Source: Lachnospiraceae bacterium
Lineage (GTDB): Bacteria > Bacillota > Clostridia > Lachnospirales > Lachnospiraceae
DNA: 64,000 nt
Direction of reading: 5' to 3'
Assembly: GCA_028689655.1 (NCBI GenBank)
Contig: JAQVCT010000012.1
Coordinates: forward strand, 2,753 to 66,752
Below are positions 37,726 through 63,565 of this stretch, piece by piece. The notes under the pieces were generated by a model, which was not told the origin of the DNA, ran no database searches, and saw nothing but the letters and a program-made list of their open reading frames with translations. Each line of letters opens with the position of its first letter. Positions within the stretch are counted from its first letter, which is position 1. The position numbers and the translations under genes were made by a program.

Positions 37726-37742
37726 AAAGGGTGATTTTTAAA

Positions 37743-38528
37743 ATGAAAAAATTCTTAACAGTTTTATGTATGATTACCTGTATCTTTGGATTAACAGCAT
37801 GTGGTACACAGAAAGAAAATATGAGTTTTGATAAAGCAGAGGTTGAATCCATCAGCCAGATGGTATATCAGAATGTTTGCATGGATAATGCAGCAGATGC
37901 AGCAGCTCAGCTTCAGGCAATGGATGAGGATGAACTTGCACAGGTCGAAGCTTTATTCAAACAATACAATATTAAAATCAAAGGTGATGTATTAGCGTCA
38001 GCATTATCTTCCTATGTATCAGCACAGGAGGAAATTGGAACCTTATCAGATGTTCAGAAATATGACATCATAGCAGACAAAGATTCCTTAGATGTTAAGA
38101 TGCTGGTAAAAGGTGAGAAACACGATGCAGAGCTTGAAATCCTATTTGATGACAAGATGAATGTGACAAGTGTTGTAGTAAACCCTCAGTATTCATTTGC
38201 AGAGAAAATGGAAAAAGCAGCTTTAAATACTCTTATGGGTATGGGAACTGTATTCTGTGTATTGATCCTGATCAGCCTGATCATTTCATGCTTTACTTTC
38301 ATTCCAAAGATTCAAGAAGCATTTTCTAAGAAGAAGGAAGATGCCAAAGCGGAAGCAGTTGACAACACAATTGCCCAGATTATTGAAAAAGAAGAACTGT
38401 CAGATGATTCTGAACTGGTAGCAGTTATCGCAGCAGCGATTGCGGCAAGCGAAGGCGCAGCATCTACAGACGGATTCGTAGTTCGTTCCATTAAAAGAGC
38501 CAATACAAAGAAATGGCAGAACGCATAG
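37743..38528 (+). CDS. Lipoprotein-like domain fused to an OadG-type decarboxylase small subunit
   Basis: N-terminal signal and lipobox MKKFLTVLCMITCIFGLTACGT. A C-terminal TM (transmembrane) segment MGMGTVFCVLILISLIISCF is followed by VAVIAAAIAASEG, which is OadG-like. An alternative GTG start lies at 37731. Confidence 0.55.
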   Translation: MKKFLTVLCMITCIFGLTACGTQKENMSFDKAEVESISQMVYQNVCMDNAADAAAQLQAMDEDELAQVEALFKQYNIKIKGDVLASALSSYVSAQEEIGTLSDVQKYDIIADKDSLDVKMLVKGEKHDAELEILFDDKMNVTSVVVNPQYSFAEKMEKAALNTLMGMGTVFCVLILISLIISCFTFIPKIQEAFSKKKEDAKAEAVDNTIAQIIEKEELSDDSELVAVIAAAIAASEGAASTDGFVVRSIKRANTKKWQNA

Positions 38529-38560
38529 TATATTTAATTTAAATTACAGGAGGATTCAAA

Positions 38561-38929
38561 ATGAAAAATTATACAATTACCGTAAATGGCAACGTATATG
38601 ATGTAGTAGTAGAAGAAGGAGCATCTACAGGCGCAACAACAGCAGCTCCTAAAGCAGCACCAAAGGCAGCTCCTAAAGCAGCAGCTCCAGCAGCAAAAGC
38701 AGCAGGTGCAGCAGGAAGCCTTAAGATCGAAGCTGGTGCAGCTGGTAAGGTATTCAAATTAGAAGCAAGCGTAGGACAGGCAGTGAAAGCTGGAGATACA
38801 GTAGTAGTTCTGGAAGCAATGAAAATGGAAATCCCAGTTGTTGCTCCTCAGGACGGTACAGTAGCAAGCATTGACGTAGCAGTTGGTGATCCTGTTGAAG
38901 CAGGTGCTTTACTTGCAACCTTAAACTAA
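38561..38929 (+). CDS. Biotin carboxyl carrier protein (decarboxylase gamma / 1.3S-like subunit)
   Basis: Ala/Pro/Lys-rich linker and biotinylation motif LEAMKMEIPV. 122 aa. Confidence 0.85.
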   Translation: MKNYTITVNGNVYDVVVEEGASTGATTAAPKAAPKAAPKAAAPAAKAAGAAGSLKIEAGAAGKVFKLEASVGQAVKAGDTVVVLEAMKMEIPVVAPQDGTVASIDVAVGDPVEAGALLATLN

Positions 38930-39018
38930 AGTCAAGTGAAGCCTGGACTTTTTTCCATAAGCCCTTGCACACAACGGGAGAACAATTCCCAAAACAATAA
39001 TCATGGGAGGTCAAAAAA

Positions 39019-40170
39019 ATGTCTTATGTAGCAAATACATTAAGTAACTTATTGCATCAGACAGCTTTCTTCAATTTAACTTGGGGAAACTACATTATGA
39101 TTGCAGTAGCTTGCTTGTTCCTTTATTTAGCAATTGCAAAAGATTACGAACCATTACTTCTGGTTCCCATCGCTTTTGGTATGTTGCTTGTAAACATTTA
39201 TCCGGATATTATGCTTCACGCTGATGAGTCAGCAAATGGCGTCGGAGGTTTACTGTATTATTTCTATGTTCTGGATGAATGGGCAATCTTGCCATCACTT
39301 ATCTTTATGGGTGTTGGTGCGATGACTGACTTCGGTCCGTTGATTGCCAATCCCAAAAGTTTCTTATTAGGTGCTGCAGCACAGTTCGGTATCTTTGCAG
39401 CATACTTTGGTGCAATCGCACTTGGATTTAATGATAAAGCAGCAGCAGCTGTATCTATCATTGGTGGAGCAGATGGCCCTACATCAATCTTCCTGGCTGG
39501 TAAGTTAGGTCAGACAAGTATCTTAGGACCAATCGCAGTAGCGGCATATTCCTATATGTCACTGGTTCCTATTATCCAGCCACCTATTATGAAATTATTA
39601 ACAACGGAAAAAGAAAGAAAAATCAAGATGGGTCAGCTACGTCCAGTATCCAAACTTGAGAAAATCTTATTCCCAATTCTTGTTACCATCGTTGTATGTC
39701 TGATTCTTCCTACAACAGCACCATTGGTTGGTATGTTGATGCTCGGTAACTTATTCAGAGAATCAGGAGTAGTTAGACAGCTTACAGATACAGCTAGTAA
39801 CGCACTTATGTACATCGTAGTTATCTTACTAGGTACATCCGTTGGTGCTACTACGAGTGCAGAAGCATTCCTGAACATGGCGACCATCAAGATCGTTGTT
39901 CTTGGTCTGATCGCATTCTGTTTTGGTACTGCCGCAGGTGTATTATTTGGTAAACTAATGTGTGTTGTTACACACGGTCAGGTGAACCCATTGATCGGCT
40001 CCGCTGGTGTATCAGCCGTTCCTATGGCTGCCAGAGTATCACAAAAAGTTGGTGCAGAAGCAGATCCTACAAACTTCTTACTTATGCATGCGATGGGACC
40101 TAACGTAGCAGGTGTTATCGGTACAGCAGTAGCAGCCGGAACATTCATGGCTATTTTCGGAGTCATGTAA
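39019..40170 (+). CDS. Na+-translocating decarboxylase beta subunit (OadB/MmdB/GcdB family)
   Basis: 383-aa polytopic membrane protein. Motifs [28 protein letters not shown] and [13 protein letters not shown] are typical of the family. Confidence 0.85.
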
Positions 40171-40194
40171 AAATTATAATAGGAGGATATGTAA

Positions 40195-41622
40195 ATGTCA
40201 GAAATAGTTAAAAAACCAATTGGAATTACAGAGACAATCTTACGTGATGCGCATCAATCATTGATCGCTACCAGAATGCCTACTGAATTAATGCTTCCAA
40301 TCGTGGATAAAATGGATAAAGTTGGATATCACTCAGTAGAATGCTGGGGTGGTGCAACATTTGATGCTTCTCTTCGTTTCTTAAAAGAAGATCCATGGGA
40401 GCGTCTCAGAAAATTAAGAGATGGCTTCAAAAACACAAAATTACAGATGTTATTCAGAGGTCAGAATATCTTAGGATACAGACCATACGCTGATGACGTT
40501 GTTGATTATTTCGTACAGAAATCAGTATCAAATGGTATTGATATCATCAGAATCTTTGACTGCTTAAATGACCTTCGTAACTTGCAGGAAGCAGTTAACG
40601 CTACAAACAAAGTAAAAGCACAGGAAGGAAGGGGACATGCACAGGTAGCTCTTTCCTATACATTAGGTGATGCTTATACAATGGATTACTGGATGAAAAT
40701 GGCTAAAAATATTGAAGAGATGGGTGCAGATTCTATCTGTATCAAAGATATGGCTGGTCTGTTAGTTCCTTACAAAGCAACTGAGTTAATCACATCTATG
40801 AAACAGGCTACAAAGCTTCCAATACAGTTACATACACACTATACTTCAGGTGTAGCCAGCATGACATACCTGAAAGCTGTTGAAGCTGGTGTTGATGTAA
40901 TCGACTGTGCAATGTCACCATTTGCTATGGGTACATCACAGCCTGCTACAGAAGTAATGGTAGAGACATTCAAGGGAACAGAATATGATCCTGGATATGA
41001 TCAGAAATTACTTGCTGAGATCGCTGATTACTTCAGACCATACAGAGACGAATGTCTTGCTAACGGATTATTAAATCCTAAGGTTATGGGCGTTGATATC
41101 AAGACTTTATTATACCAGGTACCAGGTGGTATGTTATCAAACATGGTTAGCCAGTTGAAAGAGCAGAATGCTGAAGATAAATATTATGATGTATTAAGAG
41201 AAATCCCGGCAGTTCGTAAAGATCTCGGTGAGCCACCACTTGTTACACCATCTTCACAGATCGTTGGTACACAGGCTGTATTTAATGTACTGATGGGTGA
41301 GAGATATAAGATGGCAACTGACCAGACAAAAGACGTATTGCGTGGAAAATATGGTCAGACTGTAAAACCTATGAACCAGGAAGTAATTGATAAGGTTATT
41401 CCAGGGGAAGAGAGAATCACATGTCGTCCAGCCGATCTGATTGAGAACGAATTAGATAAACTTGAAGGTGAGATGAAAGAATGGAAACAGCAGGATGAGG
41501 ACGTATTATCATACGCATTATTCCCACAGGTTGCTACAGACTTCTTCAAATATCGTCAGGCACAGCAGGAAAAAGTTGACATGACACAGGCAGATACCAA
41601 AAACGGAGCATATCCAGTTTAA
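40195..41622 (+). CDS. Oxaloacetate decarboxylase alpha / transcarboxylase 5S-type carboxyltransferase, without a biotinyl domain
   Basis: ITETILRDAHQSL, ECWGGATFD and IKDMAGLL are OadA/PycB/5S motifs. The protein is 475 aa and ends without an AMKM biotin domain. Confidence 0.85.
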   Translation: MSEIVKKPIGITETILRDAHQSLIATRMPTELMLPIVDKMDKVGYHSVECWGGATFDASLRFLKEDPWERLRKLRDGFKNTKLQMLFRGQNILGYRPYADDVVDYFVQKSVSNGIDIIRIFDCLNDLRNLQEAVNATNKVKAQEGRGHAQVALSYTLGDAYTMDYWMKMAKNIEEMGADSICIKDMAGLLVPYKATELITSMKQATKLPIQLHTHYTSGVASMTYLKAVEAGVDVIDCAMSPFAMGTSQPATEVMVETFKGTEYDPGYDQKLLAEIADYFRPYRDECLANGLLNPKVMGVDIKTLLYQVPGGMLSNMVSQLKEQNAEDKYYDVLREIPAVRKDLGEPPLVTPSSQIVGTQAVFNVLMGERYKMATDQTKDVLRGKYGQTVKPMNQEVIDKVIPGEERITCRPADLIENELDKLEGEMKEWKQQDEDVLSYALFPQVATDFFKYRQAQQEKVDMTQADTKNGAYPV

Positions 41623-42525: not shown

Positions 42526-42819
42526 ATGAATGAAAATGATATGATCAATGAAGTAATCCGACATCTGGATGGACAAGTGCATAAGAACGTTGGCAGGATG
42601 AGCGTGAACTTTACAGATAAGGATACAGAAAAAGAGGTATCTTACAAATGCTGTCATATGTATGGACGCGCTGCTAATGAGACTGTGGGCTTACTGGATA
42701 TGTATACAGATAGCTGCGTGAATCAACCGGATAATGAATATCAGAGCAAAGAAAAAATGAAACAAAACGATACAAAACAAAATAAACAAAATAAACAAAA
42801 AATGAAAAATGAAAAATGA
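42526..42819 (+). CDS. Hypothetical 97-aa protein with a Lys/Asn/Gln-rich tail
   Basis: RBS AAGGAAGG 7 nt upstream of the ATG. I recognise no family. The C-terminal tail is encoded by low-complexity A-rich repeats. Confidence 0.4.
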   Translation: MNENDMINEVIRHLDGQVHKNVGRMSVNFTDKDTEKEVSYKCCHMYGRAANETVGLLDMYTDSCVNQPDNEYQSKEKMKQNDTKQNKQNKQKMKNEK

Positions 42820-48941: not shown

Positions 48942-49011
48942 TATCGATATTAATAACACTATGTGGCATTGGGTTGTTTTTAATTTAGGATAAGGCTAGG
49001 TGGATAGGCAT

Positions 49012-49788
49012 ATGGCATATGATTATGAGCAATTCAAAAAAGCAATTTTTGATATGACGAAGATTGATTTGAGCGCTTACAAAGAGAAACAGATGAAGCG
49101 TAGAATTGACACTATGATATTGAAGAATAAGATTGATGGATACGAAAATTTCGTAAAAACCATTAAGACAGATAAGAAGTTGTTCGAAGAGTTTGTCACA
49201 TATTTGACTATTAATGTTTCTGAGTTCTATCGTAACCCGGAACAGTGGGCATTACTTGATAAGGAAGTTTTTCCGGAACTGATTCAGAAGTTTGGAAACG
49301 GACTAAAGATATGGAGCGCAGCATGCTCTACTGGTGATGAGCCATATTCCTTAGTGATGGCATTATCCAGGTATCTACCACTGAATAAGATTAAGATTTA
49401 TGCCACGGATTTGGACAAGGTGGTAATAGAGAAGGCAAAGACAGGTCTGTACAATGCCAGAAGTATTGCAGGCGTACCTGCCGATTTGAAGAAAAAGTTT
49501 TTCACTCAGATTGGTCCTTCTTATAAGATTGCTGATGAAGTGAAGGCATGTGTTCAATTCAAAGAACATAATTTATTAAAGGATACATATCCCACAAATT
49601 ATGATCTCATTGTATGCCGAAATGTTTTGATCTATTTTACAGAGGAAGCAAAAGACGAAGTATTTGTTAAGTTTTTAAAATCCTTAAAATCTGGTGGTGT
49701 GCTATTTATTGGCAGCACCGAACAGATCGTAAATTATCGTGAACTGGGATATGAAAGAAAAAATTCATTCTTCTATGAGAAACCATGA
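49012..49788 (+). CDS. cheR: Chemotaxis protein methyltransferase CheR
   Basis: INVSEFYRNPEQW, IWSAACSTGDEPYS, CRNVLIYF. Confidence 0.85.
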   Translation: MAYDYEQFKKAIFDMTKIDLSAYKEKQMKRRIDTMILKNKIDGYENFVKTIKTDKKLFEEFVTYLTINVSEFYRNPEQWALLDKEVFPELIQKFGNGLKIWSAACSTGDEPYSLVMALSRYLPLNKIKIYATDLDKVVIEKAKTGLYNARSIAGVPADLKKKFFTQIGPSYKIADEVKACVQFKEHNLLKDTYPTNYDLIVCRNVLIYFTEEAKDEVFVKFLKSLKSGGVLFIGSTEQIVNYRELGYERKNSFFYEKP

Positions 49789-49957: not shown

Positions 49958-51172
49958 ATGAGGAATCGAATCAGTGTGATGATTTTATTACTATTATGTT
50001 GTATATTTGTCAGTGGATCTTTGCAGGCACAGGCCAGGGAAGCTGGTGGAGCAGAGCAGATTCCCATGAGAGGTGTCTGGGTAGGTACCGTAAACCATAT
50101 TGATTATCCGTCAATACCAACGAAAGATTCCAAAATCCTGAAGAGGGAAATTGACACTGTCATCAAGAATTGTAAAGCGGAGGGTTTCAATGCTATTTTT
50201 CTCCAGGTACGTCCTGACAGTGATGCCATCTATCCCTCGGAAGTCTATCCGTGGAGTGCCTATCTGACGGGTGTCCAGGGGCTGGCACCAATCGATGGAT
50301 TTGATCCGTTGGCATACTGGGTACAGCAGGCACATGCCAATGAGATGCAGCTGCATGCATGGATCAATCCCTATCGGATCACCACCAACGGTGTGGAAGA
50401 GTGGAATGCACTTTCTCAGCAGAATCCGGCGAAGCTTCACCCAGACTGGGTAATTCAGTATAGCAATCAAAACTTTTATTATAATCCAGCCTTACCGGAA
50501 GTCCGAGCGTTGATCGAGGCGGGGGTCATGGAAATTGTTCATAATTATGATGTGGATGGAATCCATATGGATGATTATTTCTATCCGGGTAAAGATTTCC
50601 CGGATCAGGCATATTATATGGCACTCAATCAGGGTCAGTTCTCTACGATAGAGGATTGGCGAAGAAACAATGTAAACATATTGATACAGGAGATCGATCA
50701 ACAGGTACATGAGGTAAGAGCGGATATCCAATGGGGAATCAGCCCTTCCGGGGTATGGGAAAATCAGTCAGCAAATCCATTGGGAAGTGATACTCAGGGA
50801 GGAAATCCTTCCTATTCTAAACTTTATGCGGATACAAGATTGTGGGCACTTTCAGGGTGGATCGATTATATAGCACCCCAGATCTACTGGAATATCGGTC
50901 ATGACAAGGCGGACTATACGAAGCTGGTAAATTGGTGGTCAGACACCTTAAAAGATAGTCCAACGAAGCTTTATATCGGTCTGGCAGATTATAAAGCTTA
51001 TCAGGTAAAGCCGGGAAATGTATGGTATGGTGGAACAGAACTTTGCAGACAGATGAAGCTAAATCAGGACAATGAAAAGGTCGCAGGAGAGATTCATTTT
51101 AGATATCAATTGATAATGAGTGATCCAATGATAAAAAGGGTTATCTCAGATACATATACGAAAGAAAAATGA
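49958..51172 (+). CDS. Secreted glycoside-hydrolase-like family 10 protein (GHL10 / DUF187, YngK-like)
   Basis: Signal peptide [30 protein letters not shown]...[17 protein letters not shown] and [10 protein letters not shown] are typical of GHL10. Confidence 0.75.
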
Positions 51173-53136
51173 AAAAGGAGCTTGCATCAATGAAAACAGA
51201 AAATCTTATTTACACAAACGAGTCGTGTATTGGATGTAACCGTTGTATTTCTGTCTGTCCGGTATTGACAGCGAATCGCGCAATTACGGAAAATGGAAAG
51301 GACAGAATCGAGGTAAATCCAGAACAGTGCATAGCATGTGGAGCCTGTATGGATGCCTGTGAGCATAGGGCAAGAAATTATTATGATGATACGGAAAAGT
51401 TCTTCGAAGATTTGCGGACAGATAAAAAACTCTCTCTTTTGGTGGCACCGGCATTCCCGGCAAATTATCCAAAAGAATACAAGGCAATTCTGGGAGGATT
51501 AAAAAAGTGTGGCGTAAATCATATCTATAGTGTGGGATTCGGTGCAGACATTACCACCTGGGCGTATGTGAATTATATCACAAAGAATAATTTTGCAGGC
51601 GGTGTATCACAGCCCTGCCCGGCTATCGTAAATTACATAGAGCGTTATGAACCGAAGTTACTTGGTAAACTGATGCCAATACATTCTCCGCTAATGTGTG
51701 CTGCAGTTTATGTGAAGAAATATCTGAATGTAACAGACAGCCTGGCATTTATCAGTCCCTGTGTGGCAAAGAAAACAGAAATTGATGATCCCAATACCCA
51801 GGGAATGGTCCAATACAATGTTACATTTCAGAATCTTATGGAATATGTAAGGAAAAATCATATCTCAGATAATTCCTATGAAGAGGATCTGGAAGGCGGT
51901 CTGGGTGCTGTGTATCCAATGCCAGGCGGGTTGAAGGAGAATGTGTACTGGTTCTGCGGAAATGATACCTTTGTGCAGCAGGTGGAAGGAGAGCGTGAGG
52001 TATACAAATATCTGTCCAGATATCGGGAGAGAATCGAAGCAAAGAAAGAACTTCCATTCATGGTGGATGCCCTTAACTGTTCTGGCGGATGTATCTACGG
52101 AACAGGAATTGAGGAAGCAAAGACGGAAAATGAAGATATCGAATACGAGATACAGAGGATCAGAAATCGAAGTGAGAGTGCTGCGGGAAAATCTGCGTTC
52201 AATAAAAAGCTGTCCCCGGAAAAGAGACTGAAACGATTAAATCAACAGTTCAATTCCTTAAAATTAGAGGATTTTATAAGAAAATATACGGATAAATCAG
52301 AGAAGGTGAAGATCAAACGACCATCCCAGGAGGAATTAAAGGAAATATTCCAGACCATGGGTAAAAACACAAGGGAAGAACAGACCATTAACTGTGGAGC
52401 CTGTGGATATGACAGTTGTAAAGAAATGGCAACAGCCATCTTAAATGGTACCAACAATAGTCGTTCCTGTCTCCACTATATCAAAGAACTGGCAGAGCAG
52501 GAGGAACGGCAGGCAAAAGAAGCAGCAGAACAGATTAAACAGGCAAATGAAGAGGAAATGCGCAGAGTACAGGTATTACAGGAAGTTATGGCTGAAGTAA
52601 GTAAAGACTTTGAGAGCCTGAATCATTCCATTACGGAGCTGACTGCCGGAAATGCAAATAATGCGGAGGAAAGTTCTTCCATCAGCAATCATATGGGTGA
52701 GGTGAACCAGTTCTGCGAGGAGGTGCAGCAATCACTCACCTCTGTGACAGAGCTGCTTGGCAGGTTGGAGAAGAATAATAATGACATTACAAGTGTTGCA
52801 AATCAGACGAATCTCTTATCCTTAAATGCTTCCATAGAGGCTGCAAGAGCTGGAGCAGCGGGAAAAGGCTTTGCTGTGGTGGCAAGCGAGATCAAAGCGC
52901 TGTCAGATGTGAGCAAGAATACAGCCACCGACAGTAATAATAATAAGGACGCCATATCCGAGACCTTGAATCGAGTAATGCAGGAGACAGAAAGCCTGGT
53001 AAAAATCGTGAAAGAAGTGGAACAGCTGATCACAAATCTTGCTGCAAGCACGGAAGAAATTGCCGCATCCTCAGATATGATAGAGGATCTGTCCAAAGGA
53101 TTAGAAGACAAGATGAAGCGATTGCTGGAAAGATAA
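51169..53136 (+). CDS. [FeFe]-hydrogenase-like sensory domain fused to a methyl-accepting chemotaxis signalling domain (soluble chemoreceptor)
   Basis: Two ferredoxin motifs: [12 protein letters not shown] and [13 protein letters not shown]-cluster-like motifs: [19 protein letters not shown] and [11 protein letters not shown]. An extra Cys cluster [13 protein letters not shown] follows. After a coiled coil comes the MCP hairpin core [37 protein letters not shown] saw no TM segment. The alternative start ATG 51190 has a better RBS (AAGGAG, 9 nt). Confidence 0.8.
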
Positions 53137-53139
53137 CAA

Positions 53140-54243
53140 TTATAAATTTTCGAACAGCATTTGTAGTACATGGTTGGCGTATCTGGAGAAATCATCACGC
53201 TGCTTTTTGAATTCATCGGTGAGTTCAAAATACAACTCTTTACTGCGGTAATCTTCTTTAAAAAATGGCTGGAACAAGACATCCCACTGTGGCAAATAGG
53301 AGGATGTCTTTTTCGTATAGCAATTGGAGGCAGTTGCCTTGATGCGGTGGTCATGGTCCACAAAATGGGCAACAGACTTATGGATGGAACAATCTTCCAG
53401 GGGAAGATAATAATAATCCCTGTAATTGGCATAGAAATATTTTAATTCACCCTGAAAGATGGGAACTTTTAAGGTGCCTTCCATATCAAAACCGGTAAAA
53501 TAGCAATTATTCACACCCTGTGACACCGCCACAGGAAGTGGATTTTTGAAACGCAGCTTCATCAATACTTCCTGCTTTTTATCACCGACATAATCCGTAT
53601 AGTAGTTAGCCTGTACTTTTGTGACCCTCACTGTATTCAGGAATAGATCACAGTAGGACAGAACGGGCAACAGTGAGACAAGTCCCTGAATATCATCCGC
53701 ATTGTGCAGCAGTAAGATCTGTAAATTGGATTCGGAAGGTGCCTTTACATATTCGTGATAAACGCTGATGAGTTCCCCGCCGTGAAAGGTGTCCTCACGA
53801 TTTACATTCAGAAAGATTTCAATGGTCTTCTGCTTACAGTTTGGCAATTTCAGAAATTCTTTAAAAGGAGCGATACGGCGGTAGAGATCCAGCGCCTCAA
53901 AATGATCAAAGGTATCTGGAAGCCCATATTGTATTGCTTTCTGCTGCAGATAGGGGATATCGAAATTATTTCCATTAAAGTGAACAAGGTAGGAATAATC
54001 CTGGACAAAGCGGAAAAATTCCCTTAATACCTGGACTTCGTCATCGTAATGATCAGCGAACCATTGAATCAGATGAAAGGAATTATTTTTCTGGTAAATA
54101 CAGCCGATGAGATAGAGGGAAGACCCCTTTGCTGTAAAACCGGTGGTCTCAATATCTATAAATAATGTTTTCTCTAACTCCATTGTCTCGTCCAATGGAT
54201 AATTTAATTTTATATTGGATAATTCTGACTTGATTATTTTCAT
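53140..54243 (-). CDS. RNase H-fold 3'-5' exonuclease-like protein (YprB-like)
   Basis: LFIDIETTGF (DxE exonuclease I motif), VHFNGNNFD and LLHNADD. The RBS AAGGAG lies upstream. Confidence 0.7.
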   Translation of the reverse strand: MKIIKSELSNIKLNYPLDETMELEKTLFIDIETTGFTAKGSSLYLIGCIYQKNNSFHLIQWFADHYDDEVQVLREFFRFVQDYSYLVHFNGNNFDIPYLQQKAIQYGLPDTFDHFEALDLYRRIAPFKEFLKLPNCKQKTIEIFLNVNREDTFHGGELISVYHEYVKAPSESNLQILLLHNADDIQGLVSLLPVLSYCDLFLNTVRVTKVQANYYTDYVGDKKQEVLMKLRFKNPLPVAVSQGVNNCYFTGFDMEGTLKVPIFQGELKYFYANYRDYYYLPLEDCSIHKSVAHFVDHDHRIKATASNCYTKKTSSYLPQWDVLFQPFFKEDYRSKELYFELTDEFKKQRDDFSRYANHVLQMLFENL

Positions 54244-54681: not shown

Positions 54682-56001
54682 ATGGCAAAATTTACATTTG
54701 TTGGTGGAATACATCCATATGATGGTAAAGATTTATCAAAAGATAAACCGATCAAAGAAATCCTGCCAAAGGGCGATTTATATTATCCACTTTCTCAACA
54801 TATTGGTGCACCTGCCACGGCGATTGTAGCAAAAGGTGATCATGTATTGACCGGACAGAAAATTGCTGATGCGACAGGCTTTGTATCCGCACCAATTTAC
54901 GCCACTGTATCGGGAACAGTAAAAGGAATCGAACCACACAGAATTGCGGTGGGAGACACCGTGAATTGTATTGTGATCCAGAATGATGGTCTCTATGAAG
55001 AAGTGAACTATGAGGCAATTGAAAATCTGTCAGACATCAGTAAGGAAGAGATCCTGAATCGAATCAGGGAGGCTGGTGTTGTAGGAATGGGTGGTGCAGG
55101 ATTTCCTACCCATGTGAAATTATCTCCCAAGGAACCGGATAAAATTGAATATGTAATCGTGAACTGTGCAGAATGTGAGCCTTATCTCACATCTGATTAC
55201 CGTAGAATGTTAGAGGAACCGGAGAAACTGATTCAGGGCCTGAAAGCCTCGCTGCGCCTGTTCGACAATGCCAAAGGTGTTCTGGCAGTGGAGGATAATA
55301 AGCCAGATTGTATCGCATTATTGAAAAAGCTCACAAAAGAGGAACCGGATATCAGCGTGGCAGCTTTGAAGACGAAGTATCCACAGGGATCAGAACGTCA
55401 ATTGATCTATGCGGTTACGGGACGTGCCATCAATTCCACCATGCTGCCGGCAGATGCAGGCTGTGTAGTGAATAATGTAGACACGGTGGTGGCTATTTAT
55501 AATGCAGTTATGTTAGGAAGACCATTGATGCAGAGAATCGTCACTGTTACAGGGGATGCCATCAATGATCCAAGAAATTTTGCAGTGCGTGTAGGTACTA
55601 TTTATGAGGAATTGATTGAGGAGGCAGGGGGATTTAAGACAGAGCCGGAGAAGATCGTCTCCGGTGGTCCCATGATGGGATTTGCTCTATTTGATACGAA
55701 TGTGCCGGTTACCAAGACATCCTCGGCGTTACTTTGCATGACAAAGGATGAGGTGGCAGCATATGAACCAAGTGCATGTATCAACTGCGGTATGTGTGTG
55801 GAAGCATGTCCGGGGCGTATTATCCCCAGCCGTCTGGCAGATTATGCAGAGCATGGCGATATGGAGCAGTTTGAGGCACATAACGGTATGGAGTGTTGTG
55901 AGTGCGGATGCTGTAGCTTTGTCTGTCCGGCAAAACGACAGTTAACACAGTCCATCAAATCCATGAGAAAAATGGTATTGGCTGAGAGAAAGAAAAAATA
56001 A
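54682..56001 (+). CDS. rnfC: Rnf electron-transport complex subunit C
   Basis: GMGGAGFPTHVK, SGGPMMG, and two 4Fe-4S motifs CINCGMCVEACP and CCECGCCSFVCP. Confidence 0.9.
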   Translation: MAKFTFVGGIHPYDGKDLSKDKPIKEILPKGDLYYPLSQHIGAPATAIVAKGDHVLTGQKIADATGFVSAPIYATVSGTVKGIEPHRIAVGDTVNCIVIQNDGLYEEVNYEAIENLSDISKEEILNRIREAGVVGMGGAGFPTHVKLSPKEPDKIEYVIVNCAECEPYLTSDYRRMLEEPEKLIQGLKASLRLFDNAKGVLAVEDNKPDCIALLKKLTKEEPDISVAALKTKYPQGSERQLIYAVTGRAINSTMLPADAGCVVNNVDTVVAIYNAVMLGRPLMQRIVTVTGDAINDPRNFAVRVGTIYEELIEEAGGFKTEPEKIVSGGPMMGFALFDTNVPVTKTSSALLCMTKDEVAAYEPSACINCGMCVEACPGRIIPSRLADYAEHGDMEQFEAHNGMECCECGCCSFVCPAKRQLTQSIKSMRKMVLAERKKK

Positions 56002-56018
56002 AGGAGGAAGCAAGACTT

Positions 56019-56951
56019 ATGAGTAATTTGATGAAAGTATCTTCAAATCCACATATTAGATCTAAAGTTACGACAAGTTCTATTATGTCAGCAGTCGTCA
56101 TTGCTTTACTTCCCGCGACTTGCTTTGGTATCTATAATTTTGGATTACATGCCCTATTGCTGATTCTGGTAACGGTGGCTTCAACAGTATTGTCAGAGCT
56201 GATCTATGAAAAAGCAATGAAGCAGAAAGTGACCATAAAGGATTTGTCAGCGGTTGTGACAGGTCTGCTGCTGGCACTGAACCTGCCTCCGAAAGCACCT
56301 TTATGGATCGGCGTGATCGGTGGAGCATTTGCAATTATTGTAGTAAAAATGTTATTTGGCGGACTGGGACAGAACTTTATGAACCCGGCTCTTGGTGCCA
56401 GATGTTTCTTATTGATCTCCTTTACTTCGATTATGACGAATTTTGATTGTGACGCCTATACAGGTGCTACGCCGTTAGCGTCTATCAAGATGGGAGAAAG
56501 TGTAAATGTATTAAATATGGTGATCGGAAAGACTGCAGGTACCATCGGCGAGACATCCGTGATCGCCATCATAATCGGAGCCTGCTTCCTCATCATGGTG
56601 GGAGCCATCGATCTTCGTGTTCCAGGAAGTTATATTGTAACCTTCGTTGTATTCCTGATCTTATTTAGCGGTCATGGTCTGGATGGTTCCTACATATCCG
56701 CAGAACTTTCCGGTGGCGGATTGATGCTGGGTGCATTTTTCATGGCGACGGATTATGTGACCAGACCCATCACGAAAAATGGACAATACCTATTTGGAAT
56801 CCTTCTGGGTATTCTCACCGGTATCTTTCGAATCTTTGGTGCCTCCGCAGAGGGCGTGAGCTATGCGATTATCATTGGCAACCTGTTAGTGCCATTGATT
56901 GAGAAAATTACATATCCCAAGGCATTTGGCAAAGGAGGGGAAAGAGCATGA
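56019..56951 (+). CDS. rnfD: Rnf complex subunit D
   Basis: Polytopic membrane protein with NPALGARCFL, a YTGATPLA FMN-attachment-type motif, and FMATDYVT. Confidence 0.9.
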   Translation: MSNLMKVSSNPHIRSKVTTSSIMSAVVIALLPATCFGIYNFGLHALLLILVTVASTVLSELIYEKAMKQKVTIKDLSAVVTGLLLALNLPPKAPLWIGVIGGAFAIIVVKMLFGGLGQNFMNPALGARCFLLISFTSIMTNFDCDAYTGATPLASIKMGESVNVLNMVIGKTAGTIGETSVIAIIIGACFLIMVGAIDLRVPGSYIVTFVVFLILFSGHGLDGSYISAELSGGGLMLGAFFMATDYVTRPITKNGQYLFGILLGILTGIFRIFGASAEGVSYAIIIGNLLVPLIEKITYPKAFGKGGERA

Positions 56952-57571
56952 ATGAGCAGATTAAGAGCATGTTGAGAGATGCATTGATTCTTCTGGCGAT
57001 TACCCTTGTAGCCGGACTTGCCCTGGGTTTTGTCTATGAAGTGACAAAAGCGCCTATTGCAAATCAGGAATTGAAGGCAAAAAATGATGCATGTGCAGAG
57101 GTATTTAAGGATGCAACATCTTTTGAGTCCTATGAATTTGACGGGGATGCTGCCAGAGCAGTGCTGGATGACGCAGGGCTGGCAGAGGAGGATATTGATG
57201 AAGTCATGACAGCCCTGGATGATGGCGGCAATCAGATCGGTTATGTACTGACAGTGACCAGTCATGAAGGCTATGGTGGAGATATCACTTTCTCCATGGG
57301 TGTAAAAAATGATGGTACCTTGAATGGAATTTCCATTTTATCCATCTCGGAGACTGCCGGACTGGGTATGAAAGCCAAGACGGATGAGTTCGGAGAGCAA
57401 TGGAAAGATAAAAAAGTGGACAAATTTGAATATACAAAATCCGGTGCGACTGCGGACAATCAGATCGATGCTATCAGCGGCGCTACCATCACCACCAACG
57501 CAATGACTAATGGAGTCAATGCAGGACTTGCTTACTTTGCCAGTATAGAAGGAGGTAGCGGGAATGAATAA
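56948..57571 (+). CDS. rnfG: Rnf complex subunit G
   Basis: N-terminal TM segment. ETAGLG and DAISGATITTNA (FMN-binding motif). Confidence 0.85.
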   Translation: MNEQIKSMLRDALILLAITLVAGLALGFVYEVTKAPIANQELKAKNDACAEVFKDATSFESYEFDGDAARAVLDDAGLAEEDIDEVMTALDDGGNQIGYVLTVTSHEGYGGDITFSMGVKNDGTLNGISILSISETAGLGMKAKTDEFGEQWKDKKVDKFEYTKSGATADNQIDAISGATITTNAMTNGVNAGLAYFASIEGGSGNE

Positions 57572-58313
57572 AGCAGGAGAACGTTTATTTAATGGTTTGA
57601 TCAAGGAAAATCCAACCTTTGTGTTAATGTTGGGTATGTGTCCAACACTGGCGGTGACCACATCTGCCATCAACGGATGCGGTATGGGGCTTACCACCAC
57701 AGCGGTACTTGTCATGAGCAATATGATCATTGCATTGCTTCGCAATATTATTCCGGACAAAGTTCGTATTCCGGCATTCATCGTCATCATTGCAAGTTTT
57801 GTAACAGTGCTGGAGCTTTTATTGGAGGGATTCTTACCAAGTCTGTATGATGCCCTGGGTCTTTATATCCCATTGATCGTAGTAAACTGTATCATATTAG
57901 GACGTGCGGAGGCTTACGCTTCCAAAAATCCAGTGATTCCATCTCTGTTTGATGGTCTCGGTATGGGACTTGGATTTACACTGGGACTTACCTGTATCGG
58001 TATTGTGAGAGAATTGATCGGGGCGGGACAGATCTTTGGAATACAGATCCTGCCACTGGCTGATGCCAGCAAGGGAATCGCCGGATATACACCGGTAAGT
58101 ATCTTTATCCTGGCTCCTGGTGCCTTTTTCGTACTGGCATGTCTCACCGCACTTCAGAATAAGGTGAGGATGTCCGCAGCGGCAAAGGGCGATATGGATG
58201 CAGCGAAAAAGTTATCCTGTGGAACAGATTGTGCAACTTGTGGAAATACGGGATGTGGTGGAAAATTTTATGATACCAGCGCATCTGCTACGACTAAAAG
58301 ATCAGAAGAATAG
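57564..58313 (+). CDS. rnfE: Rnf complex subunit E, with a Cys-rich C-terminal tail
   Basis: NPTFVLMLGMCPTLAVT and LYIPLIVVNCIILGRAEA. The extra tail is SCGTDCATCGNTGCGG. Confidence 0.9.
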   Translation: MNKAGERLFNGLIKENPTFVLMLGMCPTLAVTTSAINGCGMGLTTTAVLVMSNMIIALLRNIIPDKVRIPAFIVIIASFVTVLELLLEGFLPSLYDALGLYIPLIVVNCIILGRAEAYASKNPVIPSLFDGLGMGLGFTLGLTCIGIVRELIGAGQIFGIQILPLADASKGIAGYTPVSIFILAPGAFFVLACLTALQNKVRMSAAAKGDMDAAKKLSCGTDCATCGNTGCGGKFYDTSASATTKRSEE

Positions 58314-58326
58314 GAGGTAAGTACAG

Positions 58327-58902
58327 ATGAAAGAATTATTGATCATTGCAATTGGTTCAGCACTTGTGAATAACGTCGTACTTAGCCAGTTCTTAGGATT
58401 GTGTCCATTCTTAGGTGTATCAAAGAAAGTGGAAACCGCGGCAGGTATGGGAACAGCTGTTATCTTTGTCATTACATTGGCGTCGGCAGTGACAGGCACT
58501 ATTTATCAGTTCGTATTGACACCTTTGAACATTACTTATTTACAGACCATCGTATTTATCCTGGTCATTGCAGCACTGGTACAATTCGTGGAAATGTTCC
58601 TGAAAAAGTTCATGCAGCCACTCTATCAGGCACTTGGCGTGTATCTGCCATTGATCACTACCAACTGTGCAGTACTTGGCGTGGCACTTACCAATGTTCA
58701 GAAATCTTATGGTATTCTGACCGGTATCGTAAATGGATGTGCTACGGCCGTGGGCTTTACCATTTCCATCATCATATTGGCGGGCTTACGTGAGAAAATG
58801 GAATATAATGATGTACCAAAAGCATTTCAGGGAATGCCCATCGTATTAGTGACTGCCGGTCTTATGGCAATTGCTTTCTGTGGTTTCTCTGGATTATTAT
58901 AG
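58327..58902 (+). CDS. rnfA: Rnf complex subunit A
   Basis: NNVVLSQFLGLCPFLGVS and VYLPLITTNCAVLG. Confidence 0.9.
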   Translation: MKELLIIAIGSALVNNVVLSQFLGLCPFLGVSKKVETAAGMGTAVIFVITLASAVTGTIYQFVLTPLNITYLQTIVFILVIAALVQFVEMFLKKFMQPLYQALGVYLPLITTNCAVLGVALTNVQKSYGILTGIVNGCATAVGFTISIIILAGLREKMEYNDVPKAFQGMPIVLVTAGLMAIAFCGFSGLL

Positions 58903-58916
58903 GAGCGAGGTGCGAT

Positions 58917-59708
58917 ATGAACATAACAGGTATCATAATTGCAGTTGCAGTTGTCGGAGGAATCGGTCTGTTCATCGGATTATTTCTGGGCATTGCAGCC
59001 ATCAAATTTAAAGTAGAAGTAGATGAAAAAGAAGAGGCTATCGCAGGTGTCCTTCCTGGAAATAACTGCGGTGGCTGTGGGTATGCCGGATGTGCCAATC
59101 TGGCGGCAGCCATTGCCAAAGGGGAGGCTCCGGTAAATGCCTGTCCCGTAGGCGGTGACCCGGTGGGAGCAAAAGTGGCAGAGATCATGGGCGTGGATGC
59201 AGGAGAGAGCAGGAAGATGGTGGCTTTCGTGAAATGCAACGGAACCTGTGAGATGACCACCTCCCAGTATGAATACAGCGGTGTCAGGGATTGCAAGCTG
59301 GTGGGATTTGTGCCGGACGGCGGCCCGAAGAGCTGTAATTACGGCTGTCTTGGATATGGAAACTGCGTAAAAGTTTGTCCCTTCGATGCAATTCATATTG
59401 AAAATGGAATTGCTGTTGTGGATAAAGAAAAGTGTAAGGCGTGTGGAAAATGTATCGCTGAATGTCCAAAACACCTCATTGAATTAATCCCATATGATGC
59501 AAAACATGTGGTACAATGCAGCTCGGCAGACAAGGGGCCTGTCACCATGAAAGCCTGTCAGACCGGGTGTATCGGCTGCGGACTTTGTGTGAAAGCATGC
59601 CCTGTGGGAGCAGTTACCGTGGAGAATTTCCATGCCCACATCGATCAGGATAAATGTACCGGATGTGGCGCATGTAAAGAGAAGTGCCCAAAGAAAATCA
59701 TAGTGTAG
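58917..59708 (+). CDS. rnfB: Rnf complex subunit B
   Basis: N-terminal TM segment, NCGGCGYAGC, and several CxxCxxCxxxCP ferredoxin motifs. Confidence 0.9.
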   Translation: MNITGIIIAVAVVGGIGLFIGLFLGIAAIKFKVEVDEKEEAIAGVLPGNNCGGCGYAGCANLAAAIAKGEAPVNACPVGGDPVGAKVAEIMGVDAGESRKMVAFVKCNGTCEMTTSQYEYSGVRDCKLVGFVPDGGPKSCNYGCLGYGNCVKVCPFDAIHIENGIAVVDKEKCKACGKCIAECPKHLIELIPYDAKHVVQCSSADKGPVTMKACQTGCIGCGLCVKACPVGAVTVENFHAHIDQDKCTGCGACKEKCPKKIIV

Positions 59709-59723
59709 AACAAGGAGTCTCAT

Positions 59724-60341
59724 ATGAATCGAAATTGTATCGTTGGAATTGCTGGTGGAACAGCATCTGGAAAAACGACTATCGTCAATCGCATCAAGGA
59801 AAGTTTTGGAGAAAATATTGTGGTAATCAGCCATGATTCCTATTATAAGGCTCACAATGATATGAACTATGAGGAGCGTTCCCATCTGAATTACGATCAT
59901 CCATCTTCCTTCGATACGGAGCGCATGATCGCAGATATCATGAAGTTGAAAAATAACGAAGAAGTGGATATTCCAGTGTATGATTACACCATCCATAATC
60001 GTTCCAGTGAGACGATGCATGTGATTCCGAAGCCGGTGATCATCATCGAGGGAATCCTGATTCTGGAGAATAAAGGCTTGAGGGATCTCATGGACATCAA
60101 AGTATTCGTGGATGCAGATGCGGATGAGCGGCTGATGCGCAGAATCGTACGTGACATGGCAGAGCGTGCCAGAAGTGTGGAATCCATTATTAATCAGTAC
60201 AAGGACACCGTGAAGCCCATGCACGAGCAGTTCATAGAACCCTCCAAGAAATATGCGGATATCATTATTCCCCGGGGTGGAGAGAACACCACGGGAATCC
60301 ATATCCTCCAGGAACACTTGAAACACATGTTGGAGACATAA
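59724..60341 (+). CDS. udk: Uridine kinase
   Basis: P-loop GIAGGTASGKTT, NYDHPSSFD, IIIEGILIL and RRIVRD. Confidence 0.9.
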   Translation: MNRNCIVGIAGGTASGKTTIVNRIKESFGENIVVISHDSYYKAHNDMNYEERSHLNYDHPSSFDTERMIADIMKLKNNEEVDIPVYDYTIHNRSSETMHVIPKPVIIIEGILILENKGLRDLMDIKVFVDADADERLMRRIVRDMAERARSVESIINQYKDTVKPMHEQFIEPSKKYADIIIPRGGENTTGIHILQEHLKHMLET

Positions 60342-60374: not shown

Positions 60375-61370
60375 TTACGGCTGTGGAAACCCGGAGGAGT
60401 AATGTAATTCATAATCATCTGTGATGAACAGTGCTTCCACATGATCCAGGGACTCAATCAATTCCATGCCTTTGTCCAGACCCAGCACGAAACAGGAGGT
60501 GCTCAGTCCATCCCCCTCCACGGAGGTATGGGAGAGAATGGATACGCCCAGTAAGTGATTCTCATAGGGATACCCGGTAAAAGGATCGAGGATATGATGA
60601 TACAACTTGCCGTTTTCCTCAAAGTATCGTTCATAGACACCGGAGGAGACCATGGAGGAATCCGATACGGGAACCGTCACGATAGGGGTATTACGGCTGT
60701 CAAAGGGCTTTTGGATACCGATCTGATAGGTGGAGTGGTCGGGTTTATCCCCGATGGTCAGGACATTTCCCCCCAGGTTGATGATACCGGATGTCACGCC
60801 ATGTGCCAGAAGATAGGTCTTTAGCTGGTCGGCAATATACCCCTTTGCGATAAAGCCAAGATCTATGGCGGCATTGGGATTGGACAGGGTAACGGTATTG
60901 CCGGATACGGTAACGGCGTGATAATCCACATTTTTCAGACAATTCTTGACAGCGTCATCAACGGGAATATGTTTTGGTGCATCAGAAGAAAAATTCCACA
61001 AATCACTCAGTGGCGCCAGCGTAATATCAATGGCGCCATTTGTGATGTCACAATAGGAGAGTGAAGTACTGATCAAGGACGCCGTCTCGGGGGCAACGGT
61101 GACAGGATTCCCCTGACTGTGATTGATGTTCCAGATGTCACTGCCCTCCAGAGTTCGACTTAACAGGTGCTCATATCGGTCACATTCCTGGAAGGCATCA
61201 TCGATGAGAGCTTCTTTTGACTGGTCATATAATGTGATGGAGATCACTGTATCAAAATAGAATCCGGTCTTTGAGACGGGGTCCTGATTTACATTGCAGC
61301 CACTTAATAATGGAAATAGAAGTAATGAGAGTATGACAGGGATTGTTATTTGTTTTTTTAAACATTTCAT
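60375..61370 (-). CDS. apbE: FAD:protein FMN transferase ApbE (lipoprotein)
   Basis: Lipobox LLSGCN. AIDLGFIAKGY and YHHILDPFTGYP are ApbE signatures. Confidence 0.85.
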   Translation of the reverse strand: MKCLKKQITIPVILSLLLFPLLSGCNVNQDPVSKTGFYFDTVISITLYDQSKEALIDDAFQECDRYEHLLSRTLEGSDIWNINHSQGNPVTVAPETASLISTSLSYCDITNGAIDITLAPLSDLWNFSSDAPKHIPVDDAVKNCLKNVDYHAVTVSGNTVTLSNPNAAIDLGFIAKGYIADQLKTYLLAHGVTSGIINLGGNVLTIGDKPDHSTYQIGIQKPFDSRNTPIVTVPVSDSSMVSSGVYERYFEENGKLYHHILDPFTGYPYENHLLGVSILSHTSVEGDGLSTSCFVLGLDKGMELIESLDHVEALFITDDYELHYSSGFPQP

Positions 61371-62749: not shown

Positions 62750-63565
62750 TTATTTTAGCTTGATGGTGTCCGGGGTCAGTGTATATAATTTAGCAGAAAC
62801 AGGAAGGGTAGCATAGATCTCAGCGTATTCCAGATTGGATATGGTATCGATAAAATTCACCGCATAATTTTTATGAATTCCATTTTGACGCAGGATGTCC
62901 ACCGCTTTATTGTAAGCGATGGCCGCCTGCGTTTCTTCTTTATAGACACCCACCTGGTAATAGCTGCGCACATGGATCTTCACTTTATATCGGATGCCAT
63001 CCCTGGTATTGATCTGGGTGATGCCGTGGAACTGATTCATAATTACGATATTTTCATAGCGAAAATCATGAGGATTGCCGTTGGCAAAGCGGTAGTCACG
63101 ATTCAGAACGGAATAGTTTTTGATTCCATAACGATTCAGAATATTGTACTGCATCCCATAATCTGACACGAAGAGATGTCCCTTGCGCTGCATGAGTTTA
63201 TGGGAAGAATAATAGAAGAGATCGTCGATATCGAAGATCAGCGGCATATCAGGGGACAAATAATAATAGAAATAGTTCTGCCGGGTATAGATGGGATTGG
63301 CAAAATAGATGCCATTATCCCGGTAATTGATCAGGGACACCCACTTGTCAAAGGAGAGTAGCTGAAGTGGATGATAATCCTCGATGGAACAGTCTGTATG
63401 AAGAACAGACATCCCCTCCCGATAGGCGAGATGTGCTTTTGCCATGGTGTCAAAGCTTCCAAGACTGATATGCTTTCGATGGAAGGTGAGAGAGGAACGA
63501 TAATAGATAGTCTGGTCTTTTTTCCTGGCAATGAATACGCCGGGGAGTTTTTGATCTTTATGCAT
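62750..63565 (-). CDS. Protein with two AP2-like DNA-binding domains and a degenerate HNH-like centre
   Basis: The N-terminal GVF..(11)..YYRSSLTFHRKHISLGSFDTMAKAHLAY and C-terminal GITQINTRDGIRYKVKIHVRSYYQVGVYKEETQAAIAYNKA both fit the AP2 pattern (G[VI]...Y/W.a.i....k...lG.f.t.eeAa.AY). The central FANGNPHDFRYENIVI resembles an HNH_3 motif without the catalytic His. The RBS AGGAG lies 5 nt upstream. Confidence 0.55.
   Translation of the reverse strand: MHKDQKLPGVFIARKKDQTIYYRSSLTFHRKHISLGSFDTMAKAHLAYREGMSVLHTDCSIEDYHPLQLLSFDKWVSLINYRDNGIYFANPIYTRQNYFYYYLSPDMPLIFDIDDLFYYSSHKLMQRKGHLFVSDYGMQYNILNRYGIKNYSVLNRDYRFANGNPHDFRYENIVIMNQFHGITQINTRDGIRYKVKIHVRSYYQVGVYKEETQAAIAYNKAVDILRQNGIHKNYAVNFIDTISNLEYAEIYATLPVSAKLYTLTPDTIKLK

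Follow-up and report, generated by a model that had tools for sequence, protein, structure and literature searches.

The hydrogenase database HydDB defines a class named '[FeFe] group C2, chemotactic (putative)' (Sondergaard, Pedersen and Greening 2016; PMC5037454), which is found in Clostridia and is counted routinely in metagenome surveys of gut and rumen. This class is defined by sequence clustering only, and one acetogen study discarded its C2 matches as unvalidated. The sensory hydrogenases that have been characterised are TmHydS and TamHydS, whose sensory role is called putative (PMC13104023, PMC8924675, PMC12578642), and a 2025 Nature Microbiology paper calls for the characterisation of sensory hydrogenases (PMC12578642). 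We found in the literature no experimental work on a member linked to a methyl-accepting chemotaxis protein (MCP), and no H2 chemoreceptor. Here we describe a gene encoding such a fusion protein, hereafter the receptor, which most likely occupies 51190..53136 on the + strand of a 64,000-nucleotide stretch of DNA from a Lachnospiraceae bacterium (GenBank assembly GCA_028689655.1, contig JAQVCT010000012.1, positions 2,753 to 66,752 of the forward strand). This whole stretch is called the window, and all coordinates refer to it.

As judged from its domains, the receptor is an ordinary member of HydDB [FeFe] group C2, a placement that rests here on the combination of a sensory hydrogenase domain (H-domain) with an MCPsignal domain in one polypeptide. 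An earlier note on this DNA, made from the sequence alone, had assigned the protein to the catalogued 'Group C' sensory type and had stated that no MCP-fused member is characterised. Both statements agree with what is published, as evident by the HydDB entry for group C2 (PMC5037454) and by a literature that describes only TmHydS and TamHydS as characterised. We favour, with moderate confidence, the interpretation that the receptor is a cytoplasmic group C2-type MCP that senses H2 or the H2/ferredoxin couple. Fermentation in the gut has H2 as one of its central currencies: the partial pressure of the gas determines which fermentation routes are profitable, and we know of no account of how gut bacteria sense it. 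In metagenomes from human stool, group C 'sensory' hydrogenases reach ~0.11 copies per genome (PMC12578642), and in a Crohn's cohort no hydrogenase class shifted more significantly than the H2 producers with group C2, which were decreased (p = 3e-12; bioRxiv 10.64898/2026.06.24.733704).

Architecture and active site of the receptor

Residues are numbered from the first in-frame ATG of the longest open reading frame (ORF) at the locus (51169..53136, + strand; 655 amino acids), unless the 648-amino-acid form that begins 21 nucleotides later, at ATG 51190, is specified. A Pfam scan of the 655-amino-acid ORF identifies four modules, all of which exceed the curated cut-offs. The protein begins with an F-domain that carries two ferredoxin-type [4Fe-4S] motifs (51208..51372, +; Pfam Fer4 family, amino acids 14-68; Cys 20/23/26/30 and 54/57/60/64), which is followed by the [FeFe]-hydrogenase H-domain (51427..52101, +; Fe_hyd_lg_C PF02906, amino acids 87-311, 99.1 bits versus a cut-off of 22.1). 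A C-terminal accessory cluster domain comes next (52387..52470, +; PF04060 FeS, amino acids 407-434, 32.8 bits versus 23; Cys 409/412/417/434), and the remainder consists of a helical linker and an MCP signalling hairpin (52471..53133, +; amino acids 435-655), within which MCPsignal PF00015 matches amino acids 539-640 with 76.2 bits versus 34.6. Thus the four modules that the earlier note had read in a single ORF are all recovered, including by the Fe_hyd_lg_C and MCPsignal models with which it had proposed to check them. The additional C-x2-C-x4-C cluster that it had noticed (amino acids 407-417) acquires a fourth ligand in Cys434, and so takes the form Cx2Cx4Cx16C.

The cysteine inventory is well suited to four clusters, namely the two F-clusters, the H-cluster (150/198/304/308) and the C-terminal cluster. 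Among 136 diverse sensor modules (38-61% identity, all output types), the F-domain cysteines are conserved in 97-100% and each cysteine of the C-terminal cluster in 99%. PF04060 is also the Pfam family of the RnfB N-terminus, and the Cx2Cx4Cx16C motif has been described for TamHydS and TmHydS (PMC6984386, PMC8163306). The receptor has no transmembrane segment, none having been recognised in the earlier note either, with a highest Kyte-Doolittle 19-residue mean of 1.33 (compared to 2.33 for the N-terminus of the GHL10-family protein encoded upstream). The Pfam scan also returned no PAS family at E <= 0.01. This predicted lack of a PAS domain rules out the M2f/TmHydS subtype, not group C2. A chance origin of the architecture is of no concern, because all four modules are present at full length in 82 of 84 related loci and in all of the top 120 database matches.

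The H-domain is far removed from standard enzymes. Its best NCBIfam model, TIGR04105 (monomeric [FeFe]-hydrogenase), yields 132.9 bits, which is far under the 450-bit cut-off, and the scores for TIGR02512 and NF040762 are likewise far under theirs. Therefore, the protein is a divergent hydrogenase homologue and no standard enzyme. To assign active-site positions, 23 orthologues were aligned by MAFFT to CpI, the sequence of which was checked and is 100% identical to PDB 1FEH/4XDC, and the 136 sensor modules served as a second conservation set.

Three motifs provide the equivalents of the CpI ligands. The L1 motif SQPCP (amino acids 147-151; 51607..51621, +) contributes Cys150 (C300), the L2 motif SPCVAKKTE (amino acids 196-204; 51754..51780, +) contributes Cys198 (C355) together with Lys201 (K358) and Glu204 (E361), and the L3 motif NCSGGC (amino acids 303-308; 52075..52092, +) contributes Cys304 (C499) and Cys308 (C503). 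These are the PCP, SPCxxKxxE and NCSGGCxxG motifs that had been recognized in the earlier note, which had also considered that an alignment might reveal missing cluster ligands. The opposite was found, in that all ligands and the lysine that contacts cyanide are conserved. The equivalents of C300, C355, C499 and C503 are invariant in the 23 orthologues, as are those of K358, E361, A230, P231, S323 and P324. In the broader set, Cys150 and Cys198 are each conserved in 100% of modules and Cys304/308 in 99-100%, and only 8.6% of the alignment columns reach at least 95% conservation. This small set holds the four ligands, K358 (96%), E361 (98%), P231 (97%), S323/P324 (99/98%), G421/G422 and the twelve accessory-cluster cysteines. 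The residues of the [2Fe] pocket (K358, E361, P231, S323-P324 and G421-G422) are all present in the receptor and are 95-99% conserved across the family. Such strict retention of the pocket favours a genuine [2Fe] subcluster over a Nar1-like protein that carries FeS clusters only.

Residues for proton transfer show the reverse pattern. The SQPCP sequence aligns with the catalytic TSCCP motif both in HMMER alignments to hydrogenases in the PDB and in the MAFFT alignment to CpI, which agrees with the earlier assignment of this site and places Pro149 at the position of the relay cysteine C299. Across the 23 orthologues, C299 is replaced by Pro, E279 is deleted, E282 is Ala or Gly, S319 is Met, Val or Ile, and R286 is Tyr. 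Of these changes, Pro149, Tyr136 and the E279 deletion are invariant, and the E282 and S319 sites vary among non-protonatable residues only. The receptor itself has Ala at the E282 site, Met at the S319 site and Tyr at the R286 site, with Ser196 in place of M353 and Leu302 in place of M497. With the whole catalytic proton pathway gone, the protein is therefore not expected to be a turnover enzyme, and the proposal that it is a sensing variant is supported as far as sequence analysis reaches.

The loss of C299 and of the canonical pathway, combined with a change of M353 to Gly, Ser or Thr, marks the putative sensory HydS type of group C, and the receptor shows this pattern. Among 'sensory' sequences in HydDB, the C299 site holds Ala in ~43%, Cys in 17%, Pro in ~10% and Ser in ~10%, and the M353 site holds Gly, Ser (~32%) or Thr (PMC10055695). 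Pro at the relay site thus belongs to the rarer states already known from sensory sequences and is not peculiar to the receptor. In the 136 modules, Ser196 is kept in 85% and Leu302 in 91%. The codon for Pro149 lies at 51613-51615, and with a frequency of 81% in the same modules this proline represents the commonest pocket variant of the family. Both characterised sensors, TmHydS and TamHydS, carry Ala at the 299 site (PMC10407848), and we found no enzyme with the exact Pro/Ser/Leu pocket among the characterised sensory hydrogenases in the literature.

The leucine at the M497 site deserves separate comment. In CpI, the M497L change left the [2Fe] subcluster not properly integrated (PMC10055695), which could be taken to mean that a pocket with this leucine cannot hold [2Fe] and that the protein is Nar1-like. 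We rejected this argument because TamHydS naturally carries Ser at the M353 site and Leu at the M497 site, yet assembles an H-cluster, the Hred state of which is stabilised (PMC8163306). H2 production by TamHydS was ~200-fold below that of CrHydA1 in a cell-lysate screen (PMC6984386).

An AlphaFold2 monomer model was generated from a 60-sequence alignment (mean predicted local distance difference test score, pLDDT, of 77; predicted template modelling score, pTM, of 0.65). For most of the H-domain, pLDDT averaged over blocks of ten residues is 82-94, and the prediction is confident for the C-terminal cluster domain too. In the numbering of the 648-amino-acid form, a single continuous helix is predicted from 428 to 553, beginning right after the fourth cluster cysteine and reaching the hairpin tip, with a return helix from 555 to 624. 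Residues 435-471 are predicted as plain helix. A Foldseek search with this model matches DdH, CpI, CbA5H and TmHydA at E values of ~1e-14 over 380-485 columns. The target-normalised TM score to the D. desulfuricans enzyme is 0.61-0.64, and identity to the matched structures is ~20%. No group C or D structure is present among the 50 best Foldseek matches listed.

The signalling module has the features expected of a functional MCP. Its 36-residue kinase-control tip motif (amino acids 545-580; 52801..52908, +), which had earlier been judged canonical by its sequence, is indeed found, and 19 of its first 24 residues are invariant in 60 orthologues. The tip of the hairpin falls at about residue 563, 129 residues from Cys434, and is followed by a C-arm of 92 residues or 13 heptads. 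A candidate methylation pair on the N-arm, E500-E501 (52666..52671, +), is located 62-63 residues before the tip, and a strict match to the consensus [ASTG]2-x2-[EQ]2-x2-[ASTG]2 is located on the C-arm (amino acids 625-634; 53041..53070, +), 66-67 residues after it, so that the candidate sites on the two arms would stand opposite each other. In the 60 orthologues, E, Q, K and N account for 37, 9, 4 and 4 sequences at site 500, and E and Q for 44 and 16 at site 629, with E501 and E630 invariant. Such alternation between E and Q is typical of genuine methylation sites for CheR and CheB (CheD). Among T. maritima MCPs with structures in the PDB (2CH7, 3G67, 3G6B), the module matches TM1143 and, over amino acids 461-633, the soluble receptor Tm14, and we found no usable literature reference for naming its heptad class.

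Distribution and portability of the sensor module

Proteins related to the receptor are abundant. A word-indexed database search gave 5,440 matches at E <= 1e-20, and one match cluster comprises 2,886 member sequences. The top 120 matches range from 644 to 722 amino acids, most being ~650, and share the same architecture at 55-63% identity. Relatives are encoded in the genomes of at least 471 species (one genome per species), and the best 80 of these all come from gut or rumen Lachnospiraceae, including Roseburia, Acetatifactor, Kineothrix and the mouse isolates 28-4, IMSAGC_011 and 0.1xD8-71.

When only the sensor part (amino acids 8-450) served as the query, an exhaustive HMMER search retrieved 819 clusters at 50% identity (E <= 1e-30). 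The lengths of the best 150 of these extend from fragments of ~250 amino acids up to 1,693 amino acids. Among these closest 150 of the 819 clusters, 45 are linked to an MCP, ~43 to a histidine kinase (34 of them hybrid), 20 to GGDEF-EAL, 17 to GGDEF (one of which also bears PAS) and two to HD-GYP. The second-closest representative to the sensor of the receptor is one of the HD-GYP fusions, at 59% identity. On a rough neighbour-joining tree of sensors, which makes the count approximate, the output class switches at least 39 times compared to a mean of 69.6 in shuffles, and the tree suggests that MCP-linked and kinase-linked sensors interleave without sorting into clean clades.

By these sequence comparisons, the ~440-residue sensor behaves as a portable input domain, and this portability therefore provides independent support for a sensing role. 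The division that HydDB draws between groups C1 and C2 according to partner may be phylogenetically unclean. Relatives of the region 51190-52518 in which the xQPCP sensor is fused to enzymes of cyclic di-GMP (c-di-GMP) metabolism are represented by P0122, P0123, P0125, P0139, P0142 and P0143. HydDB includes a diguanylate-cyclase-linked class only for [NiFe] group 2c, and none for [FeFe].

The receptor locus and the rest of the window

Two candidate start codons precede the F-domain. The first in-frame ATG is part of an ATGA sequence (51169..51172, +) that overlaps the TGA stop of the upstream GHL10-family gene (49958..51172, +; PF02638, 249.8 bits), and just a weak purine run lies before it. 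The second, at 51190, is preceded by a Shine-Dalgarno sequence, AAGGAG (51175..51180, +), read from the junction sequence 9 nucleotides 5′ of the ATG. The resulting coding sequence (51190..53136, +; 648 amino acids) is 100% identical to NCBI MDD2972197.1 from a Lachnospiraceae metagenome-assembled genome. Homologue N-termini match this start as well, lying 2-12 residues ahead of the conserved L-x-Y/F-T-N-x-x-C-I-G-C sequence. The second ATG is thus probably the real start. Translational coupling of the receptor to the GHL10 gene through ATGA, as suggested in the earlier note, is doubtful, because the AAGGAG sequence precedes the second ATG and both the NCBI twin and the homologues begin there. 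The overlap does exist in the DNA, and the GHL10 protein does have a signal-peptide-like N-terminus (Kyte-Doolittle mean of 2.33 at residues 4-24), and only 17 nucleotides separate this gene from the start at 51190.

Further upstream, at a distance of 1.38 kb, lies cheR for an MCP methyltransferase (49000..49788, +; CheR PF01739, 190.9 bits, plus CheR_N PF03705). Its presence in the window shows that the genome has chemotaxis adaptation machinery. As supporting context for the receptor, the role in which it had first been cited, cheR fails: CheR, GHL10, the exonuclease encoded downstream and Rnf were each found within 10 kb in none of the 84 related loci. The GHL10 gene accordingly shows no functional link to the receptor, and we rejected a conserved neighbourhood, whether as a cheR-GHL10-receptor operon or as a link to Rnf. 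Just three neighbours recur in the 84 loci: upstream, an aspartokinase-like ORF in 29 and a homoserine-dehydrogenase-like ORF in 21, both judged by eye from their N-termini, and downstream, a 211-amino-acid ORF in 26. Two relatives on long contigs sit amid housekeeping genes, and having cheR and GHL10 upstream is a peculiarity of the present genome.

Downstream, the receptor stop (the gene ends at 53136) and the stop of a convergent RNase H-like/PolB-exonuclease-like gene (53140-54243, -) are 3 nucleotides apart, and no terminator-like hairpin was found between them (53134-53142). A scan for promoters and terminators from 48.8 to 54.7 kb was uninformative, as evident by its return of fewer sites than shuffled sequence. 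Six ORFs read as rnfCDGEAB (54682-59708, +) begin 1.5 kb downstream of the receptor; RnfB was identified by Pfam and the others by eye. RnfB itself (58917-59708) begins with a PF04060 Cx2Cx4Cx16C domain (NNCGGCGYAGC..., 47.8 bits), as is present in the C-terminal cluster of the receptor. This run is followed by udk (59724-60341, +) and by a convergent apbE (60375-61370, -).

Elsewhere in the window, an 845-amino-acid ORF (1082-3619, +) fuses the precorrin-6x reductase CbiJ (225.9 bits) to a tetrapyrrole methylase domain, and is located within a region for cobalamin synthesis, with cob/cbi-like ORFs recognized by eye at ~3.6-9.5 kb and 22.8-26.4 kb. Five genes (36292-41622, +) appear to encode a biotin-dependent Na+-pumping decarboxylase, comprising a carboxyltransferase, OAD gamma, a biotin carrier, OAD beta (513 bits) and an OadA-like alpha subunit. 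The ORFs at 26759-27301 (+), 42526-42819 (+) and 62750-63565 (-) have no Pfam match at E <= 1e-4, and the first of these is rich in cysteine (CGLNCGLCP...CCGCGNGNQSC). GC skew is positive in all 2-kb bins and nearly all genes are on the + strand, which is consistent with the leading strand of one replichore.

Proposed H2 sensing, competing explanations and known systems

If the receptor does sense H2, a plausible course of events can be outlined. H2 would diffuse freely into the cell and bind to an H-cluster of low turnover, which would split it slowly; in characterised relatives, a reduced state of this cluster is stabilised. The resulting redox or conformational change of the H-domain and its accessory clusters would then pass through the C-terminal cluster domain, whose fourth cysteine ligand is predicted to sit at the N-terminus of the signalling helix, and run along the coiled coil as far as the tip, at which CheA/CheW would be modulated. 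CheR and CheB, and possibly CheD, would adapt the receptor at the E/Q pairs. Since electrons can also pass between the F-clusters and ferredoxin, the receptor may read the redox couple of H2 and ferredoxin and not H2 by itself. For a gut fermenter that produces H2, the likely benefit would be to leave sites of inhibitory H2 build-up or to approach H2 consumers, and the response could take either sign.

Several observations weigh against this interpretation. The TamHydS C-terminal cluster does not undergo reduction by 1 atm H2 and its mutation barely alters activity (PMC13104023), and these data argue against a simple redox relay through that cluster. The proline at the C299 site is absent from both characterised sensors, and the cofactor geometry could differ as a result. 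The receptor lacks a conserved neighbourhood tying the gene to hydrogen metabolism in the 84 loci, and neither hydEFG, nor cheA/W/Y, nor flagellar genes were found within the 64-kb window. The confidence of the AlphaFold2 monomer model is low in the methylation region. Lastly, the literature yielded no experiment on a C2 member, and the sensory role of groups C and D is still called putative.

One explanation that we consider unlikely is that the receptor serves energy or redox taxis in the manner of Aer, with the N-terminal [4Fe-4S] clusters reading the ferredoxin pool, the H-cluster acting as an internal electron sink or reference, and H2 not being the cue. The two ferredoxin-type clusters would be at the surface-facing N-terminus and are 97-100% conserved, and the Rnf ferredoxin:NAD+ complex encoded 1.5 kb downstream would make ferredoxin poise central to the energetics of the host. 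Moreover, H2 reduces an N-terminal cluster in TamHydS, so that the H-cluster and the F-clusters are electronically coupled (PMC13104023). However, this explanation leaves the strict conservation of K358, E361, P231 and P324 without a cause, and the adjacency to Rnf recurs in 0 of 84 related loci. It is also hard to separate from the reading of H2, because the H-cluster equilibrates both couples.

Less likely again, and in our view improbable, is a Nar1-like sensor whose H-domain carries a cubane without [2Fe] and reports O2, reactive oxygen species or nitric oxide through the oxidation or loss of clusters, leading to taxis away from oxygen. The great divergence of the H-domain (132.9 versus 450 bits for TIGR04105; ~20% identity to structures) would fit such a protein, as would the absent proton relay, the failure of M497L CpI to integrate [2Fe] properly (PMC10055695) and the lack of maturase genes in the 64-kb window. 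However, TamHydS forms a normal H-cluster with the same Ser/Leu pair and no relay, and the lysine that hydrogen-bonds the distal cyanide is conserved along with its glutamate partner in 96-98% of modules across all outputs. Gut Lachnospiraceae, Roseburia and Agathobacter among them, carry and transcribe group B [FeFe]-hydrogenases (PMC12578642), and this too weighs against a Nar1-like sensor. Hydrogenases of this group need the HydEFG maturases.

The sensor could also work as described while its MCP feeds a non-flagellar chemosensory pathway that controls c-di-GMP, biofilm formation or pili, an arrangement to which we give little credence. Fusions of this input module to c-di-GMP enzymes and kinases are very frequent, in none of the loci were flagellar or che core genes seen close to the gene, and the hairpin is short, with its 13-heptad C-arm. 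On the other hand, MCP genes commonly lie scattered at a distance from che and fla operons, both the tip motif and the methylation sites follow the canonical pattern, cheR is located within the window, and the host genera in the genome scan include flagellated Roseburia. Finally, a catalytic H2-evolving or H2-consuming hydrogenase that merely has a coiled-coil tail is very improbable despite its complete set of H-cluster ligands and its electron-entry F-domain, given that every catalytic proton-pathway residue is missing, that relatives without the relay are orders of magnitude less active (TamHydS is ~200-fold below CrHydA1), that the tail is a genuine MCP which has sites for adaptation, and that the module is swapped among signalling outputs.

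Returning to the sensing of H2 or of the H2/ferredoxin couple, a broader and more tentative proposal can be made, for which we would put the chances at somewhat below even. The xQPCP module may be a general-purpose cytoplasmic H2 input for chemotaxis, two-component kinases and c-di-GMP signalling, and its MCP version in flagellated gut Lachnospiraceae may be a true H2 chemoreceptor that places H2-producing fermenters relative to H2 consumers. If true, an H2 chemoreceptor would here be defined in molecular terms for the first time, and interspecies hydrogen transfer in the gut would gain a behavioural layer. Unlike the stand-alone proteins TmHydS and TamHydS, the MCP fusion offers a direct readout in the form of CheA kinase activity or swimming bias, and such a readout could settle both whether H2 is sensed and how the signal exits the H-domain.

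Among known systems, the closest is HydDB group C2 itself, which has the same defining combination of a sensory H-domain and an MCP signalling domain and from which the receptor differs in nothing substantive. TamHydS from Thermoanaerobacter mathranii (group D, M2e) likewise has two N-terminal [4Fe-4S] clusters, an H-domain, a Cx2Cx4Cx16C cluster and no PAS domain, and it shares with the receptor the changes of M353 to Ser and M497 to Leu as well as the missing canonical proton pathway. However, TamHydS stands alone without an output domain, whereas the receptor is fused to an MCP, and it has Ala rather than Pro at the C299 site. The group D relay is formed by Glu252 and Glu289, and Glu252 takes the place of a valine in group A. 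If this site corresponds to CpI V423, an equivalence that we infer from the text of PMC10407848 rather than from an alignment of TamHydS, then the receptor has Leu255 there, and 88% of the 136 modules also have Leu.

TmHydS from Thermotoga maritima (group C, M2f) resembles the receptor as a putative H2 sensor with three accessory clusters plus the H-cluster, in which C299 and M353 are lost and activity is low. It differs by its C-terminal PAS output, where the cluster domain of the receptor runs straight into the MCP coiled coil, and by Ala/Gly/Ser at sites 299/353/497, where the receptor has Pro/Ser/Leu. The regulatory [NiFe]-hydrogenase of Cupriavidus necator (group 2b, HoxBC-HoxJ; PMC5665086) provides a parallel in that its active site, which is crippled in turnover, detects H2 and is coupled to a signalling protein. 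However, its metal site and fold are unrelated, it forms a complex of separate subunits with a histidine kinase, and its output is transcription, not taxis.

On the signalling side, Aer/Aer2, HemAT, H. pylori TlpD and T. maritima Tm14 (3G67/3G6B) are likewise MCPs that are soluble or face the cytoplasm. Aer/Aer2, HemAT and TlpD sense a diffusible gas or a redox state through a bound cofactor, but their inputs are PAS-FAD, PAS-heme, globin and CZB zinc domains, and none is a hydrogenase H-cluster. The class to which the receptor belongs has been catalogued since 2016 and nothing at the receptor locus is unusual. The receptor therefore adds no new kind of system to those above; it is one more orthologue, to which the shuffling of its module among outputs and the active-site pair of TamHydS can be added.

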